A stretch of DNA of 64,000 nt from Candidatus Equicola faecalis (GTDB lineage: Bacteria > Bacteroidota > Bacteroidia > Bacteroidales > Bacteroidaceae): assembly GCA_018065185.1 (NCBI GenBank), contig JAGHTU010000004.1:60042-124041 (forward strand). The letters run 5' to 3'. The notes beneath the pieces are model-generated. The model was not told where the DNA came from and did not search any database. It saw nothing but the letters and a program-made list of their open reading frames with translations. The number at the start of each line of letters is the position of its first letter. Position 1 is the stretch's first letter. Shown one piece after another: positions 22,675 to 29,322 of this stretch. A program made the translations under genes and the position numbers.

Positions 22675-23487
22675 TTACATGGAGAAATGCATAATAGCCA
22701 TAGAATAATCATCATTTGCTATAACCTTTTGGTTTAGAAGCTTTGTTATGTGTTTCCTAAAATTATAATCGTGAGATATACTATTAAATAAGGGATTAAC
22801 GACTTGACCAAAATTATCTATTTTTCGATTCAATGCACTCAAAATAAAATTCTCATTTTTAGTCCTTGATTCAATTGCAGTCTTCAATTCATTATCATAA
22901 AGACCTTTGTTTGCGATACAATACGATGACAATATATAATGTGCCAACGCATCGCTACATATAAAAACAACATCATCTGTGCCGATACTGAAAGTACCAC
23001 ATTTAAAGCCTTTAGGGTTCAGCTCATCTTTACTGTTTATTAAATATGGTGCAGAATTAAAATCAACCAGTGCTCCAAAACTATGTTCTAATAGTCCTAT
23101 TTTACGATTATAGTGGAATACAACACTATCCCCATACGCCATCCAATTAACATTCCCATTAACATACCAAGCACATGCGAGTGTAGCAAATGAACCCTCG
23201 TCATAGAACTTATCCAAGAACATGCCGCCTATCTTTTTTGCTTCATCTTCACATTCGAGATAGAAAGGTTCCCAAATAGTTTCAATCCATGAGTCTAATC
23301 GGTCAAATGAAGTAATTGGTGTTGACGGAAGGTTGTTTATCAGATACTCTGACCATCGTTCTGCAAATACGCCACCGCCTCCTGCACCGTCAGAAACCGC
23401 GATAAGATTCCCTTTTGCTATTACAGAATCTTCATTGACAGATGGTTCAAGAATCTTACCTATTGACGATACTTTGAGTTTATACAT
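22675..23487 (-). CDS. PP2C-like protein phosphatase (TerY-P triad type)
   Basis: Metal-binding motifs NEDS, AVSDGAGG, YGDS, ICSDAL and NDDYS. Overlaps the upstream gene by 8 nt. Confidence 0.85.
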   Translation of the reverse strand: MYKLKVSSIGKILEPSVNEDSVIAKGNLIAVSDGAGGGGVFAERWSEYLINNLPSTPITSFDRLDSWIETIWEPFYLECEDEAKKIGGMFLDKFYDEGSFATLACAWYVNGNVNWMAYGDSVVFHYNRKIGLLEHSFGALVDFNSAPYLINSKDELNPKGFKCGTFSIGTDDVVFICSDALAHYILSSYCIANKGLYDNELKTAIESRTKNENFILSALNRKIDNFGQVVNPLFNSISHDYNFRKHITKLLNQKVIANDDYSMAIMHFSM

Positions 23488-24931
23488 TTGCTTTTGAGAT
23501 GTTTGTCGGTGTACCGATATCCATTAATTGAATAAGAGTAGTCATATCTGCATTTACAGCCATTGCAGAATGTCGTTCTTTTCTATTATCATTGAGATAA
23601 GTTGAAATATCATCATTATATCTCAGTGGCAATAGACTTGACATATCAAATAGGATTTTACCATAAGAGTTTTCGCCCAGTTCGGCTTTAGAAATTGGGA
23701 ATGCGACTACGCCATCCCCATTTCCTGGCACAATATGAATATTGAACAGCAAGACATTACCATCATTCGTAAACATGGACTTTATCTCATTTGCCTTCTG
23801 TGTAACAGACTCCACTGTTGCACCATTGAAAATGCCGTCTGTTATGTTAATGATAGTAGGAGGGTAACAATCTTGGTTTTGATGCTTCATCATCCAATCA
23901 TCAAGCAATTCTCTTGCTTTATCTAGAGCTCTATGGACAAAGGTGCTTCTGCCATCACTTCTTGCCTCTACCCACTGAACTTTCTCTACCTCTTTTACAA
24001 CAACTCCTCTACGGGTTCTTTTTTCTTCACGAGTAATTATCTTTTTATATGGATGATCACGTAATTCTTCTGGAGTAACAAAGGATTTGCCTTCAAGCTC
24101 TCCCTGCCAACCGAAATAGGATTCTCTTCCATATCCGATAACAGCTATATCATAATAATTTCTAACCTCTATTGATTTTATACAGCGTAAAACCAGCTCA
24201 TTTATTGTTCTATTAACAATTCTTGCAGCAGCTTCAGCCAACGTCATTTCTTCACCAAACAAACTTGTTTTGTTTCGCATTGAAATAGATTGGTCTATCA
24301 AGAAGATGAACGCAGTTGGATTGCCTCGTGAGATTTGCGCAGTATAGGCTTCCTTGCCAAGTAACTGATTTGGGTTCGATGGAAGAGGAATACCAAAGTT
24401 CGATATATTAGTAATTGCTTCCAACGGAATAAAATTCTTTACGAGAACTTCTGCTTGGAAGTATTTTTGTTCATCTTCAGGCAAATCAAAATGTTTTCTC
24501 ACTTTTAAAGCGGAAAAATGTATATTGTCTAATGCCGACAGGGAACTACCGACCTGAGCGCCATCGCGAGTGGCATTACGATCTGCATATTTCGTATACT
24601 TCCATCCAACAACTGCTGGATCAATTTCCAAAATCACAGGATTTGATATTCTTCCATCCTTCATTGCAACGAACATCATTGGATGCTGTCGGGTAAAACT
24701 TACACGGACATAGTTCTGTAAGCCATCACGTAAATCTAACTGACGTGACAGCTCTCCACCTCCAGGTTTTCTGATAGTTATACCTTTTTCCTTGCAATCC
24801 ATCCATGAGTATAGACCTCCGTTCTTTATAATGGACTCCAGATTATCTCTATCCGTAAAGTGATATAATTTGTTTATACCATTTTTCTTTAGAATGTCTA
24901 AAAAATCTTGATAGTTTTGTTTTGTTGTCAT
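23480..24931 (-). CDS. Fusion of a DarT (DUF4433) DNA ADP-ribosyltransferase domain and a TerY-like vWA domain
   Basis: aa 1-180 has LYHFTDRDNLESIIKNGGLYS, YVRVSF...HPMMF and QAEVLV (catalytic Glu). aa 190-483 has YTAQISRGNPTAFIFLIDQSISM (MIDAS DxSxS), YYDIAVIGY, INITDG and LLFNIHI. Confidence 0.85.
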   Translation of the reverse strand: MTTKQNYQDFLDILKKNGINKLYHFTDRDNLESIIKNGGLYSWMDCKEKGITIRKPGGGELSRQLDLRDGLQNYVRVSFTRQHPMMFVAMKDGRISNPVILEIDPAVVGWKYTKYADRNATRDGAQVGSSLSALDNIHFSALKVRKHFDLPEDEQKYFQAEVLVKNFIPLEAITNISNFGIPLPSNPNQLLGKEAYTAQISRGNPTAFIFLIDQSISMRNKTSLFGEEMTLAEAAARIVNRTINELVLRCIKSIEVRNYYDIAVIGYGRESYFGWQGELEGKSFVTPEELRDHPYKKIITREEKRTRRGVVVKEVEKVQWVEARSDGRSTFVHRALDKARELLDDWMMKHQNQDCYPPTIINITDGIFNGATVESVTQKANEIKSMFTNDGNVLLFNIHIVPGNGDGVVAFPISKAELGENSYGKILFDMSSLLPLRYNDDISTYLNDNRKERHSAMAVNADMTTLIQLMDIGTPTNISKANV

Positions 24932-24934
24932 ATG

Positions 24935-25543
24935 TTAGTCATTAAATAATGTCAATTGTATGTTATCCGAAGACGTATTCTCATCTTTTTTGCTACTAAA
25001 GGGGTATATCCCTTCAACATACGCTTTTATAAGAAAAGCATGAGAAAGTGGTTTTGAAGGATCATCCACATCACAATTTGTTGCATAGTCAAGTAGTACG
25101 ATTGTCTTCATCTTACTCAATTCACGTAAACGTTCAATAATGTTGTGAACCTTATTTTCAAGTACCCATTTGTATGCAGGAAGATAGATCTGGTGTCTTG
25201 CTTCTATGTAACCAAGCAGTTCACTTCCATTTACCCCTTTCCTATGTCCCAGAGGCTTTCCGTATTTTCGTACAGTTCTTTTAAGACCTGCCATTGTTGT
25301 ATTTGTGAATAGCGATGTGTCAACATCACAAGTTTCAAATACCTTTAACCCTTGCCATATGGCTTCAACACAGGATGCCGTAACACCTTCAGAAAAAGGC
25401 ACTGGAATATTTCCATGAGGATAAAATGGACTAAGTTTCACAATTGTATCCTTTGCTTGACTCGTTACATCTGCAATTATGACATTTGGATATTTCTTTA
25501 AGATATTCTCAGGCTTCTTTCTATGTGATTCTATTATTATCAT
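24935..25543 (-). CDS. DUF6939-like protein, NADAR/YbiA-like putative ADP-ribosylhydrolase
   Basis: LSPFYPHGNIPVP and SCVEAIWQGLKVFE resemble the NADAR LSNFY and SVEHxxQAxKF motifs. Ends 3 nt before the DarT-vWA gene. Confidence 0.65.
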   Translation of the reverse strand: MIIIESHRKKPENILKKYPNVIIADVTSQAKDTIVKLSPFYPHGNIPVPFSEGVTASCVEAIWQGLKVFETCDVDTSLFTNTTMAGLKRTVRKYGKPLGHRKGVNGSELLGYIEARHQIYLPAYKWVLENKVHNIIERLRELSKMKTIVLLDYATNCDVDDPSKPLSHAFLIKAYVEGIYPFSSKKDENTSSDNIQLTLFND

Positions 25544-25745
25544 AAATAGTCCTCTCGAATAAATGGATTATAAAAAATAAAAAGATACTTTCATCACGCA
25601 TTTTAAAGACGACATCAAAATTACCATTGCTCATTATTGGATTACTTTCATAGTCAAGAATAGGGCATAAATGAGTGAGTGTAGCAAAATTGTTTTCTGC
25701 ATGCAAAATTGAGTCAATATATTCTAATATAAGTGAATAATTCAT
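25521..25745 (-). pseudogene. Truncated paralogue of the kinase N-terminus
   Basis: MNYSLILEYIDSILHAENNFATLTHLCPILDYESNPIMSNGNFDVVFKM aligns without gaps to the kinase's MKYPIISDYIDSIMSAEENFATLINLRPVLDNEGHPIMSSGNFAVVFKM, then similarity is lost. Confidence 0.85.
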
Positions 25746-25748
25746 ATA

Positions 25749-26411
25749 CTATTCATTAATATCTTTAGTCATTCTTGCTATTTCGTTTACTCCTTCCAAG
25801 AATCTGTAAATAAACAACATCGATGAACGCAAAGTCTCTATACTAATACTAGCAGAAAAAAGTTTCCCTTTGCTTTTACCTAATTGTCGATTTACAAGAT
25901 GACTGTAGCGAAAAGCAGTAGAATCCGGGTCATATTTTTCAAATTCAAGGATCAACTTTCGTATTTTCTTTGTTATGTTATCTGCTTGCATATAGGGGGT
26001 AAGCATTTCCCATAGACTTTCTAAACCATGTTTCTTCAAGTCGTCAATGTTCACGCCTGTTTTGAATAATAATATAGATTCCTTCATTATATTCTCCATG
26101 TAGATACGGAAACAATAAAGCGCAGGAAAAATATACGAATCCTTTATCAGATTGTTCTTGCAATATTTGCAAACGCCCAATAGGTTAATAGCAACGCTGG
26201 CATAACCAATAGAGAATTTTAAAGAATCCAATTCTCCATTGTTGATGATGCTATCAGACGAAAATGCTGAAGACTGAAACATAAAATCTGGAATATTATC
26301 CATTTTTAATGCATCAATATCTTCACAAGAAATATGAAGCACATCTTTTATGATGTCACTCCTTAACCTTTTCTTGTACCTCTTCAAAAAATGTTTTTTG
26401 TATTTATTCAT
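25749..26411 (-). CDS. Hypothetical protein with a HEPN-like helical pattern
   Basis: FPALYCFRIYMENIMK, KHGLESLW and DPDSTAFRY follow the ExxxK / HxLxxL / RY pattern of HEPN-fold proteins. Confidence 0.5.
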   Translation of the reverse strand: MNKYKKHFLKRYKKRLRSDIIKDVLHISCEDIDALKMDNIPDFMFQSSAFSSDSIINNGELDSLKFSIGYASVAINLLGVCKYCKNNLIKDSYIFPALYCFRIYMENIMKESILLFKTGVNIDDLKKHGLESLWEMLTPYMQADNITKKIRKLILEFEKYDPDSTAFRYSHLVNRQLGKSKGKLFSASISIETLRSSMLFIYRFLEGVNEIARMTKDINE

Positions 26412-26417
26412 TTTGCT

Positions 26418-28331
26418 TTATTCTTCGTGATAATCAAGTTTGTAGTATGATTGATACTTTCCTTTCTTTTTATACTCAATCACATTAATCATGGCTGGTG
26501 TTATTTTTCCGCCTTTTATGATTGAGGAGTGAGTAATCGCAAATGAGACATTTTCAGAAATAGTCTTGCATGAGATATGAAAGAACCTGTTCTCATCTTC
26601 TGTCTTTACTTTAATATCACCAATACTATTGATTTCGTCAATACATAATTTTCGCTCACTGAATATTACATATTCTTCTTCTCTTTCATCAAAGGTATCA
26701 ATCACCTCAAACGATCTGGAGTGTGAATTTTCCCTATTTTGTATATCATTCACCTTGTCTGAAAAATGTTTGGCTAAGAATATATTGCGAGCCTTACTTC
26801 TTCTATATAAATTAGCAAGCCACCAACATGCTTCTTTACTGTTGGTTGACGCTTTTGTGAACCAGAATATTGCTTTATTTAAGTCTTGTCGTTGTCCCAA
26901 TTTATGCAAAAGTCCATTTTCACCAAACACTCCATGGTCATACCAATGTCCCAAGATGCATTGAGCATCGGAGTTGTTCATATTGGCAGCTTTCGTAAAA
27001 AGTCTTAGAGCTTCATTTCCATCTCTTGGAACGCCCCTACCTTCATTGTAACATTGAGCTAACATTACAATTGGGATTGAGTCTTCTTTTTGTGCAAGGC
27101 ATTCTTTGAGCAATTGTACTCCTCTATTATAATCTTGTTTAAAAGGGTACCATGCTCTAATCAATTGAACAGCAAGATACAATTTGGCATCATAATAACC
27201 GCATTTAACAGCTTCTTCTAGGCACTTAACCTGAGTGTTATAATGTTTATTATGAAGATGATGCATCATATAGATGGCGAAATAGTTTTCTCCGACATCC
27301 ATGCCTTTTTTGATTCTATCATCACATAGTTTGATATATTCCTCATACTTATTCTCTTTTTTGTACTTTATGGCTTGTTTAATGATGCTATCGAAATGGT
27401 GCGTTGAATTGACATAAGTATTTGGGGCGGATATTTTCAATCTATTAAAGCTGTACTCTGACAAGCGTTTTCCTGAATAAACTTCCAAAAACAAACTAAC
27501 CAAAGTACATATCTGACTATCTGACAACATCTTGGAAACGATACGGAATGCGCCACTCTCTCCGAGATCTAAATAGTCTTTTTGTGCAAACAGCAATCGT
27601 TCTCCACCTGTAAAATCGTGGTACAAAGAAGGTGAATTAATAATGGCTTTCAATGATAACAGAATTGTACAAATAGAAAAATCATCTAAATGTTCATCAA
27701 ATTCGGTTGTTGTTCTATAAGGATGCTGATAATCAGGTGAACCTATTTCTTTAGCCTCTTGACCTTTCATTTCCGGAACATACATTCCGTCATAATCAAC
27801 CAACACTAGTTCTCCATTGTCAGTAACAAGAATGTTATCAGGTTTTAGATCTCCATGTGCAATAGGCGAAGAAATTAACCATTTTGATAATTGATAGAAA
27901 CGGAAAAACAAAGTGTTCAATTCTGCATTGTTATCAATGTTCTTTGCGATATATCTATCCAAAGTTAATCCATCCACCCAATCCATAACAAGCACAGGGT
28001 AGTCTGTCTCTAAACTTTGTTTAGTATTGACAAATAATTCATATTCGTAATAATGGACATTCAATAGATATGGTGACTTTAGCCAGTCTAACTGACGTGA
28101 AATCATACTATAAGACTCGCTTCTTGTTTGTTGGTCTTTTGTGAAGCATTTTACGGCATATTCCTTTCTGCTTTCTACATCTATCATTTTGAACACAACT
28201 GCGAAATTGCCACTACTCATTATTGGATGTCCCTCGTTGTCAAGGACAGGACGAAGGTTTATTAGTGTAGCAAAATTTTCCTCTGCTGACATTATAGAAT
28301 CAATATAATCAGAGATTATAGGATATTTCAT
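26418..28331 (-). CDS. Ser/Thr protein kinase with Sel1-like repeats and a small beta-rich C-terminal domain
   Basis: GNFAVVFK, YAVKCF, MDWVDG, HGDLKPDNIL and LVDYDG. Sel1 repeats include LAQCYNEGRGVPRDGNEALRLFTKAANMNNSDAQCILGHWY. Confidence 0.9.
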   Translation of the reverse strand: MKYPIISDYIDSIMSAEENFATLINLRPVLDNEGHPIMSSGNFAVVFKMIDVESRKEYAVKCFTKDQQTRSESYSMISRQLDWLKSPYLLNVHYYEYELFVNTKQSLETDYPVLVMDWVDGLTLDRYIAKNIDNNAELNTLFFRFYQLSKWLISSPIAHGDLKPDNILVTDNGELVLVDYDGMYVPEMKGQEAKEIGSPDYQHPYRTTTEFDEHLDDFSICTILLSLKAIINSPSLYHDFTGGERLLFAQKDYLDLGESGAFRIVSKMLSDSQICTLVSLFLEVYSGKRLSEYSFNRLKISAPNTYVNSTHHFDSIIKQAIKYKKENKYEEYIKLCDDRIKKGMDVGENYFAIYMMHHLHNKHYNTQVKCLEEAVKCGYYDAKLYLAVQLIRAWYPFKQDYNRGVQLLKECLAQKEDSIPIVMLAQCYNEGRGVPRDGNEALRLFTKAANMNNSDAQCILGHWYDHGVFGENGLLHKLGQRQDLNKAIFWFTKASTNSKEACWWLANLYRRSKARNIFLAKHFSDKVNDIQNRENSHSRSFEVIDTFDEREEEYVIFSERKLCIDEINSIGDIKVKTEDENRFFHISCKTISENVSFAITHSSIIKGGKITPAMINVIEYKKKGKYQSYYKLDYHEE

Positions 28332-28343
28332 AAGACGTTATTT

Positions 28344-28622
28344 TTAGAATGGTAAATCATCTGAAGTGTCATCACTATCATTCTTAAATGTATAACCCCA
28401 CGTATGAAGTTTTTTGATTATTTGAGCAAGCCTATTGACTTCATCTATTGACTGAGTTCTTGCATCAATTTTCTTTAAGTTCAGCGCATACTTGAATGTA
28501 CTATTTCCAATACTTGTCACAGAATTTGGAATAATTATTTCTCCAGATGCTATTGTATCGCAACGCATCAAGACCTTTTCTGTCTCATCAAACGTTAAAA
28601 ATTCACGATTATCCATGCTCAT
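28344..28622 (-). CDS. Short protein with one BspA-type LRR unit and an acidic DDLPF tail, possibly internally deleted
   Basis: IIIPNSVTSIGNSTF and C-terminus SDDTSDDLPF. The start is set at ATG 28622 because the promoter lies inside the longer ORF call. Confidence 0.6.
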   Translation of the reverse strand: MSMDNREFLTFDETEKVLMRCDTIASGEIIIPNSVTSIGNSTFKYALNLKKIDARTQSIDEVNRLAQIIKKLHTWGYTFKNDSDDTSDDLPF

Positions 28623-28655
28623 ATTGTTTTCTTTCTGTAATGGTGCTTCCTTTTG

Positions 28656-28663
28656 CAAATTTA
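28656..28663 (-). promoter_or_regulatory. -7 element for the kinase/DarT-vWA operon
   Basis: Minus-strand TAAATTTG(CA) matches TAnnTTTG, 34 nt before ATG 28622. Confidence 0.6.
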
Positions 28664-28809
28664 GTGCATAGCAAGAATAAAACAATAATAATTTTTATCA
28701 ATTATCACCTGTTATTTTCTAGGCTTATTATTTTCTTTTTCCCATCATCTATGATGAGACGCTTATCGGTGTGGAATGTGGGAAGATCACAGAGTAGGCT
28801 CTGTCCAAG

Positions 28810-29080
28810 GTTTTTCCCATCTTTGCCTCGTCGTCTTCCGCTCGTTGCCTACAAATCATCACGATCATTTGATAAAATCATCGTGATCATTTAGGTAAAT
28901 CATCGCGATCATTTAGGCAAATCATCACGATCATTTGGAGGCTCCGTTGGGTTGGCGTTGAGGCTTCGGTTGTTTGACTTCGAAGTATCGTATGGTTAAA
29001 GGTGATTCTTACACAGTTGAAGATCGCCACATTTTGGCTCGTTGATGACCTTTGCACACTTAATTTTCGTTGAACTTACG
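28810..29080 (+). repeat. Dispersed non-coding element family B, copy 1, with a 4 x 22-bp array
   Basis: AAATCATC(A/G)(C/T)GATCATTT units at 28853, 28875, 28897 and 28919. The flanks match 63402-63659 in reverse. Confidence 0.9.
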
Positions 29081-29122
29081 CCATAGGTGGATTCTATATA
29101 AAAGAGGGGGTACAACTATCGA

Positions 29123-29286
29123 TAAATCGCTGTTTTCCAATCCTTGCCTCGTCGTCTTCCGCTCGTTGCCTACAAATCGTCGTGACAATTCGAGCAAATC
29201 GTCGTGACAAGTTGAGTAAATCGTCGTGACAAGTTAGGCAAATCGTCGTGACGATTTGGGGGCTCTGTTGGTTTGACCTTGAGGCA
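29123..29286 (+). repeat. Dispersed element family B, copy 2 (partial, tandem)
   Basis: Same leader TTGCCTCGTCGTCTTCCGCTCGTTGCCTAC, then AAATCGTCGTGAC units at 29174, 29196, 29218 and 29240. Confidence 0.9.
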
Positions 29287-29322
29287 AAGATGAGTTATTA
29301 GTTATAAAACGAGAAATTAAAA

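Follow-up and report, generated by a model that had tools for sequence, protein, structure and literature searches.

What does a toxin domain of the DarT family do when it is joined to the switch protein of a kinase-phosphatase operon? The question is raised by one gene in a stretch of 64,000 nucleotides (nt) from Candidatus Equicola faecalis (contig JAGHTU010000004.1, positions 60,042 to 124,041; hereafter the window). A single open reading frame (ORF) of 483 amino acids (aa) on the minus strand combines a DarT-family ADP-ribosyltransferase (ART) domain with a TerY-type vWA domain, in an operon with kinase, phosphatase and DUF6939 genes. With slightly more belief than doubt, we predict from these genes a system of sensor-kinase-gated, reversible DNA ADP-ribosylation serving defence. 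The fusion gene has the following parts.

23480..24931, minus strand: DarT-TerY fusion gene, 483 aa (Pfam, PADLOC, AlphaFold model)
24395..24931, minus strand: DarT-family ADP-ribosyltransferase domain, aa 1-179 (PF14487, alignment to E. coli C7 DarT1, conservation, tree)
24449..24451, minus strand: codon of the catalytic Glu161, corresponding to DarT1 E152 (alignment, conservation)
24356..24394, minus strand: short, variable Pro-rich linker of low model confidence, aa 180-192 (model, conservation)
23480..24355, minus strand: TerY-type vWA domain with a complete metal ion-dependent adhesion site (MIDAS), aa 193-483 (PADLOC TerY, vWA fold with Z 18.7)
23501..23515, minus strand: invariant C-terminal tail G473-T474-P475-T476-N477 (conservation, low model confidence)

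The frame between 23480 and 24931 has no internal stops. The original prediction had described one 483-aa ORF with DarT motifs, a linker and a complete MIDAS, and all of them are present: YHFT (23-26), NLESI (30-34), GGL (38-40), YVRVSF (74-79) and QAEVLV (159-164), then the linker GIPLPSNPN (aa 180-188), then the MIDAS residues D213-x-S215-x-S217, T330 and T364-D365-G366. Pfam DarT (PF14487) matches aa 23-200 with E 2e-34 (119 bits, cut-off 22.5), and PADLOC assigns aa 195-475 to TerY (PDLC02224, E 4e-52) and aa 20-176 to DarT (E 4e-18). The AlphaFold model, built on 58 sequences, has a predicted local distance difference test score (pLDDT) of 83.9 and a predicted template modelling score (pTM) of 0.77. 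It resembles DarT chains (7omy, Z 16.7) as well as vWA chains (Z 18.7), in agreement with the ART fold and the TerY-like character proposed earlier for the two domains.

An assembly artefact, considered in the original prediction, is ruled out. The best 120 of 2674 homologues (not every one of the latter is a fusion) cover 97-100% of the query at 67-96% identity, and DarT and vWA form a single ORF in 68 of 70 related GTDB loci. The other two are L061, which has TerY only, and L065, which is cut at the contig start. These loci come nearly all from Bacteroidales, a few having Firmicutes or Chloroflexi bin names. Among 401 genomes of the family there are 16 very strong TerY matches, and judged by open-frame length 15 of them lie in frames of at least 484 aa.

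The DarT domain looks catalytically active, judging by its residues. The key positions are H24-F25-T26, D66, R76, S78, M85, R94, N119 and Q159-x-E161. In a set of 188 fusion sequences (68 loci and 120 proteins), E161 is present in all, N119 in 187, M85 in all 187 sequences that cover it, and the HFT motif in all 184 that cover it. The corresponding DarT1 residues are E152 for E161, N104 for N119, M71 for M85, S63 for S78 and H17-F18-T19 for H24-F25-T26; E152, N104 and M71 are reported to be essential (PMC11543638). The ratio of non-synonymous to synonymous divergence (dN/dS) in the DarT domain is 0.00-0.07 in five of eight locus pairs, the other three being saturated. On the residue invariance and the dN/dS values we reject a dead DarT scaffold. 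Between the window (24395-24931) and L001 (8001-8540), synonymous divergence is 0.04 in the DarT segment vs 0.36 in the vWA segment and 0.49 in DUF6939, a hint that the DarT segment recombined recently.

To place the domain we built an unrooted tree of 44 DarT domains: 12 of a 26-row set, 15 macrodomain-paired (stop-containing and near-duplicate rows excluded), 12 NADAR-paired and 5 others. Three branches are supported. One is canonical DarT1 (100/99), another (99/94) is the DarT2 side with its macrodomain-paired sequences, and the query falls in the third (96/89), which resembles DarT1 in having the catalytic Glu, Asn, Met and Ser. The canonical DarT1 branch includes L145, which matches E. 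coli C7 DarT1 (8baq) with E 3e-34. By its sequence the fusion DarT belongs to the third branch, apart from canonical DarT1. The DarT2 type is ruled out by residues, partner and tree, as Ser78 occupies the place of the H-Y-E tyrosine, Asn119 that of the base-site His, and no macro gene is adjacent. The score against NF048013 is 51 bits, the cut-off being 150.

Guanine is favoured as the modified base because five third-branch members adjoin PF22397-type NADARs, the kind paired with DarT1, one of which matches the G. lovleyi NADAR at E 1e-60. The closest plasmid DarTs outside Bacteroidota lie before PF22397 NADAR-DarT1 genes in all four cases examined. Guanine specificity of the fusion DarT is likely but not settled, and we hold guanine in DNA to be the putative target with somewhat better than even confidence.

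The gene immediately upstream of the fusion encodes a candidate antitoxin.

24935..25543, minus strand: DUF6939, 202 aa, predicted NADAR-fold ADP-ribose eraser (PF22075, fold matches)

The neighbour had been called NADAR-like on first inspection. It is assigned to DUF6939 by Pfam PF22075, and the NADAR fold is supported by model and profile. The model (pLDDT 90.9) was compared with 48,161 chains, and the top three were the G. lovleyi DarT1-NADAR 8bat (Z 9.8; 164 residues, root-mean-square deviation 4.2), YbiA (Z 7.8) and a P. nicotianae NADAR (Z 7.0), followed by a next match at 5.2. In Foldseek, 8bat was the sole row at probability 1.0 (E 1.8e-3). The DUF6939 profile gave nothing meaningful against PDB sequences, and the NADAR link came from folding alone. 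In a profile alignment, E60, K67 and K88 fall on the NADAR ExxxQxxK and AK motifs, as equivalents of E88, K95 and K115. Together with D152 they are present in 56 of 56 DUF6939 sequences; all four NADAR residues (E88, K95, K115, D171) are required for rescue by DarG1 (PMC11543638). In one Atlas cluster of DUF6939, 17% of members match PF22397 too. No PF22397 protein was found in the genome of Candidatus Equicola faecalis itself (89% complete). On the model, DUF6939 is likely the eraser of the DarT mark. We found no mention of DUF6939 in the literature searched, supplements aside.

DUF6939 also occurs elsewhere. L075 (1899-15748) is a large NAD/ADP-ribose cluster with a stand-alone DUF6939, a NAPRTase, two or three ARH-type genes, NADAR, Sir2, Tpt1 and two macro domains; no DarT was seen in it. 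On a Bartonella plasmid (L134, 1-4498), DUF6939 lies two genes downstream of an Rhs protein and is possibly an immunity gene against an ADP-ribosylating toxin.

The two genes travel together. DUF6939 accompanies 61 of the 62 fused loci that have at least 500 nt of upstream sequence, in 58 of them directly upstream. Both DarT and DUF6939 are missing from the TerY-only triads L061, L079, L080 and L081, and DUF6939 was not found in the genomes of these four and of L055 (0 of 5; two are without a completeness figure). The three fusion loci in which DUF6939 was not found are all damaged: L055 is the only one of 188 fusions without Asn119, L082 is split inside DarT, and L165 is split and bears M85E. 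A draw of 400 other genomes across the order, not chosen for TerY, contained a third-branch DarT in ten. DUF6939 is adjacent in six of these, and the remaining four are the broken L165, one with an ARH gene nearby, one at a contig edge (L157), and L160. L159/L164, with a divergent DarT and no DUF6939, was considered as an orphan, a reading that was dropped, as an ARH gene lies in the same gene run. The co-loss fits a toxin-antitoxin link, and we regard an active ART paired with an eraser as a strong prediction.

Several observations weigh against the reading given above. The guanine contacts K74/Y75 of DarT1 are replaced by V88/A89 or A89/M90, depending on the alignment register. The positions aligned with R52/D54 (L67/R68/D69) vary, and among 150 sequences of the wider clade just 16 have Asp at D69, the position aligned with the essential D54. 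Foldseek places DarT2 chains (E 8e-8) above DarT1 (E 2e-5), so that the fold leaves the choice between DarT1 and DarT2 undecided. The original prediction, DarT1 rather than DarT2, thus holds for the active site (Ser78, Asn119, no macrodomain partner), whereas assignment to canonical DarT1 falls with the third branch, the missing K74/Y75 and the lack of a clear R52/D54 pair. The structural comparison that it proposed returned the ART fold but no preference for DarT1. On the side of the enzyme, dN/dS of the DarT domain between the window and L001 is 0.39, on just 10 differences. On the side of the eraser, the match between the DUF6939 and NADAR profiles is weak (probability 10.6%, E 0.003), and D152 corresponds to D171 by motif order, not by superposition. 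On the side of the pairing, the L055 genome is an incomplete metagenome-assembled genome, and its DUF6939 could therefore be unassembled. One third-branch DarT (L136/L160) has mostly intact catalytic residues and no DUF6939, NADAR or other eraser within 12 kb, which counts against a strict DarT-eraser rule. DarT-DUF6939 occurs without any TerY-P genes in L155 and L158, so the kinase is not required for persistence of the pair. Finally, the 70 GTDB loci are kin and not independent, and the locus counts overstate their independence.

The replaced base contacts bear on a different explanation, in which the ART is active but modifies something else, be it a different base, RNA or one of the triad proteins, and the mark is a signal or a different poison. 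It would suit a third branch that has its own invariant D66, R76 and R94 and no K74/Y75, and an eraser that is a divergent NADAR; some NADARs also strip cytidine-ADP-ribose and RNA marks (PMC12945103). In the 150 wider representatives, D66 is kept in 145, R76 in 138 and R94 in 143, and on sequence grounds these residues may replace R52, D54 and K74 of DarT1. However, the five canonical PF22397-type NADARs beside members of the same branch, including the one so close to that of G. lovleyi, belong to a family that hydrolyses guanine-ADP-ribose, and Asn119, the base-holding residue, is of the DarT1 type. We consider another acceptor improbable and retain guanine as the probable base.

The fusion and DUF6939 lie in an island of eight ORFs on the same strand, spaced by -23 to +17 nt, with a GC content of 35% vs 47-49% in the flanks. 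The order is LRR (leucine-rich repeat) remnant, kinase-Sel1, HEPN-like gene, kinase stub, DUF6939, DarT-TerY, PP2C and an 83-aa ORF.

22675..23487, minus strand: PP2C-type phosphatase of the TerY-P triad (PADLOC PP2C, E 5e-11; overlaps the fusion stop by 8 nt)
25521..25745, minus strand: 74-aa stub of a second kinase (comparison with L001)
25749..26411, minus strand: HEPN-like accessory gene, 220 aa, non-core (Atlas look-alikes named HEPN, score 0.94)
26418..28331, minus strand: Ser/Thr kinase with C-terminal Sel1 repeats, 637 aa (PADLOC STK_OB, E 1e-55; Pfam Pkinase, Sel1)
28344..28685, minus strand: 113-aa remnant that matches the C-terminus of a gene with LRRs (gene longer in L001)

PADLOC names TerY, PP2C and STK_OB in the window, that is, all three parts of the TerY-P triad; the STK_OB model is matched over positions 1-268 of 562 only. 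The window is colinear with L001 except for L001 4691-7354, which holds a 952-aa kinase. About 2.7 kb has thus been deleted in the window relative to L001, leaving the 74-aa stub; the first kinase is intact. The core conserved across the related loci consists of kinase(s), DUF6939, DarT-TerY and PP2C. All 70 loci have PP2C, and of the 38 with at least 4 kb of upstream sequence 36 have a kinase, 17 of them two or three. The HEPN-like gene has a homologue in just 2 of 70.

The island is patchily distributed and occupies many chromosomal sites. No clean empty site was found; in traceable congeners plsC flanks mfd on the opposite side. The matches listed for 30 relatives included none to the fusion gene, 13 weak matches lying outside the list. 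Among the sequencing runs listed as containing this DNA there was no RNA run, and the shares were small. The right edge of the island (about 28809-29291 of the window) contains two dispersed repeats of 180-270 bp, with several further copies in the same genome, possible elements of the miniature inverted-repeat transposable type. Among downstream accessory genes, those for DUF1810-containing proteins (8 of 70 loci) and of the ARH family (L058:10245-11510, L095:6325-7587, L043:10383-11327) recur. The distant TerY-PP2C-kinase triads L085-L089 lack DarT, and several follow an ORF of about 1100 aa and short proteins with Cys motifs; their context is different and resembles that of conflict systems.

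Is the wiring to the triad functional? The original prediction contrasted this fusion with the characterised, stand-alone DarT toxins. Within the third branch, however, fusion is usual: among 150 representatives, 137 have at least 60 extra residues, 10 of the 150 having a TerY-like vWA domain. Other partners, from the 88 of 150 that were scanned, include LRR_5, Sel1, TPR, WG and FGE domains. The novelty is in the wiring of DarT to the TerY-P triad, rather than in fusion per se. In L161 (1-4131), a PP2C-like domain is fused to a third-branch DarT, followed by DUF6939, TerY and a second PP2C. DarT is thus joined to triad proteins in two ways, which suggests a link to the triad complex. The DarT-DUF6939 pair also stands before ZorA/ZorB-like genes in L076 and L128, with strong ZorB and weak ZorA matches. 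The third branch is thereby a plug-in effector domain, used with TerY-P, PP2C and ZorAB.

Such mobility raises the possibility that DarT-DUF6939 is an ordinary DarTG1-like toxin-antitoxin pair riding on TerY-P, the fusion coupling expression or adding addiction while the kinase signals elsewhere. The pair is seen in ZorAB contexts, joined to unrelated N-terminal domains and where TerY-P is lacking, nearly all the clade is fused to something (137 of 150), and TerY-P triads persist without DarT (L061, L079-L081). Moreover, balance by erasure may suffice, as a two-hybrid test showed no association of DarG1 with DarT1 (PMC11825919). However, a fusion with a short linker is fixed across many families and in 15 of the 16 strongest TerY matches among the 401 genomes of the family, judged by open-frame length, L161 provides a second arrangement of DarT with a triad protein, and the pTM of 0.77 hints at a defined packing of two domains. 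A hitch-hiking pair is unlikely, if less so than another acceptor; gating of DarT by the kinase/PP2C pair, as a putative function, we place at even chances.

Two further groups of loci were seen. The Zorya-like variant occupies L076:6531-10930, L128:5278-9400 and L164:3318-8423. A coiled-coil-rich or long N-terminal DarT comes first, then DUF6939 (in L164, a downstream ARH gene instead), then ZorA-like and ZorB-like genes. In L137 (3500-8879) and L140 (2935-9464), proteins of 1565 and 1948 aa with a DarT-like region are followed by a 230-aa gene that starts macro-domain-like; they may resemble helicase-linked DarT systems.

The switch components are also well conserved. The MIDAS residues D213, S215, S217, T330 and D365 are present in 188 of 188 fusions, and so are the G, T, P and T of the C-terminal tail, where pLDDT falls below 50 (473-483). 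A terminal Gly-Ser/Thr is found in 7 of 7 distant TerY proteins as well, among those listed. The original prediction saw in the vWA domain a plausible kinase substrate, for which the GTPT tail is a candidate phospho-acceptor or docking site. All 63 kinases have the catalytic loop and DYDG/DFDG, and in 57 the part behind the kinase domain is free of hydrophobic segments. No membrane segment is predicted from hydropathy in the 637-aa kinase of the window.

The kinase tails vary greatly. No C-terminal OB-fold or zinc ribbon was found; the tails are Sel1, LRR, FGE and others. In the 58 of 61 tails scanned, LRR_5 was found in 37, Sel1 in 10 (two with both) and FGE-sulfatase in 4, with one each of Fib_succ_major, Lcl_C and a second kinase domain; six had no match. 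In both L010 and L024, the kinase-FGE gene ends in 140 nt that recur further downstream, past an HRDC gene and a reverse transcriptase. Of the substitutions between the copies, 94% of 17 and 95% of 20 fall on template adenines. An adenine-biased substitution pattern in a repeat pair is the signature of a diversity-generating retroelement (DGR).

L010:4451-8022 and L024:356-3709: DGR comprising an HRDC gene, a reverse transcriptase and a template repeat, with the FGE/CLec end of the operon kinase as its target

None of the other loci among the 70 passed the template-repeat test. The same reverse transcriptase family occurs beside the operon in L029 and L014. CLec/FGE domains mutated by DGRs have been proposed as sensors of invaders (PMC10907252).

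What is the system for? TerY-P is a PADLOC system, reported to be anti-phage (cited in PMC11090510), and the pairing of DarT-DUF6939 with Zorya-like genes supports the same context. Since the cluster couples DarT with the vWA partner of a kinase and a phosphatase, and retains a predicted eraser next to it, anti-phage operation is likely, and a defence role is a prediction that we consider probable. Alternatively, the operon could serve stress responses or growth control by marking the host's own chromosome reversibly. TerY-P has been proposed as a metal-sensing switch (cited in PMC11090510), and DarTG of M. tuberculosis governs replication and gene expression. However, the patchy distribution, the low GC content (35% vs 47-49%) and the many chromosomal sites speak against growth control, and hypervariable, DGR-mutated kinase tails together with the Zorya-like context fit an arms race. 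Growth control is thus very improbable.

From the operon anatomy, the conservation of ART and MIDAS residues, the purifying selection, the DUF6939 fold, the co-occurrence and co-absence, and the hypervariable kinase tails, all of them observed, we infer a ligand, phosphorylation, gating, a base and phage protection as follows. An LRR, Sel1 or CLec tail would bind a foreign ligand, of phage or other origin, in the cytoplasm and activate the kinase. The kinase would phosphorylate TerY, most plausibly on the GTPT tail, and PP2C would reset the switch. Phosphorylated TerY would free or position DarT, which would transfer ADP-ribose from NAD+ onto single-stranded DNA, most likely to guanine N2, and replication would stall. 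DUF6939 would erase basal marks enzymatically, as a type IV antitoxin. The most elaborate version is tentative, and we doubt it more than we credit it: an immune relay of sensor kinases, interchangeable and at times hypermutated by a DGR, that phosphorylate a vWA scaffold and thereby set free a DarT of a third class, which would recognise its base in its own way and be reversed by DUF6939 as a new NADAR family.

By its three core parts the operon is a member of TerY-P, and in its predicted working it is DarTG1-like; it departs from canonical DarT1 in the tree and in K74/Y75. With the TerY-P triad (Anantharaman 2012, Gao 2020, cited in PMC11090510) it shares a MIDAS-complete TerY vWA, PP2C and the same kinase family in one operon. 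It differs in the N-terminal DarT on TerY, the inserted DUF6939 gene, the kinases that are often duplicated or triplicated, and the LRR, Sel1 or CLec kinase ends in place of the OB-fold (anti-phage form) or zinc ribbon (CoCoNuT form). With DarTG1 (E. coli C7 DarT1 and NADAR; PMC11543638) it shares the ART fold, H-F-T, Ser for Tyr, Met, Asn and Q-x-E, and an adjacent NADAR-fold gene with candidate counterparts of E/K/K/D. Here, however, identity is about 25%, the branch is separate, K74/Y75 are missing and R52/D54 unclear, the C-terminus is shorter and a vWA domain is fused, and the antitoxin is PF22075, not PF22397, lies upstream and belongs to a kinase operon. DarTG2, with examples in Thermus and M. 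tuberculosis and a macrodomain as its antitoxin, has the same fold (Z 16.7) and PM motif, whereas the present protein has no H-Y-E tyrosine, Asn for the thymine-holding His and no macrodomain partner, and lies apart from the DarT2 branch (99/94).

DarT variants with added modules are already in print. DarHTG / DarG3 (PMC13069673) shows that DarT can take up further, essential modules as well as erasers of a new family; these are a helicase and an ARH-fold eraser there, and a phospho-switch and a predicted NADAR-fold eraser here. The DGR-diversified CLec sensors of PMC10907252 likewise place an FGE/CLec domain at the C-terminus of a signalling protein, where a DGR mutates it; they are reported for multicellular bacteria, and the available part of that paper does not mention TerY, Bacteroidota or ADP-ribosylation. 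We found no description of the DarT-TerY fusion in the literature, although Anantharaman 2012 above all, Gao 2020, LeRoux 2022 or their supplements may list the architecture. Nor did we find it stated in print what output the TerY-P phospho-switch has.

The failure of DarG1 to associate with DarT1 in the two-hybrid test raises the question of how infection activates those DarTs that are paired with a NADAR. The operon joins DNA ADP-ribosylation, an easily assayed output, to the TerY-P switch in one polypeptide, and so both are directly testable. If the reading is true, this would be phosphorylation-gated DNA ADP-ribosylation, and would show both how a DarT toxin can be activated and through which effector TerY-P acts. 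DUF6939 would acquire a predicted function, the third DarT branch would be defined as a plug-in effector, and a DGR-diversified sensor would be linked to a DNA-modifying toxin in gut Bacteroidales.

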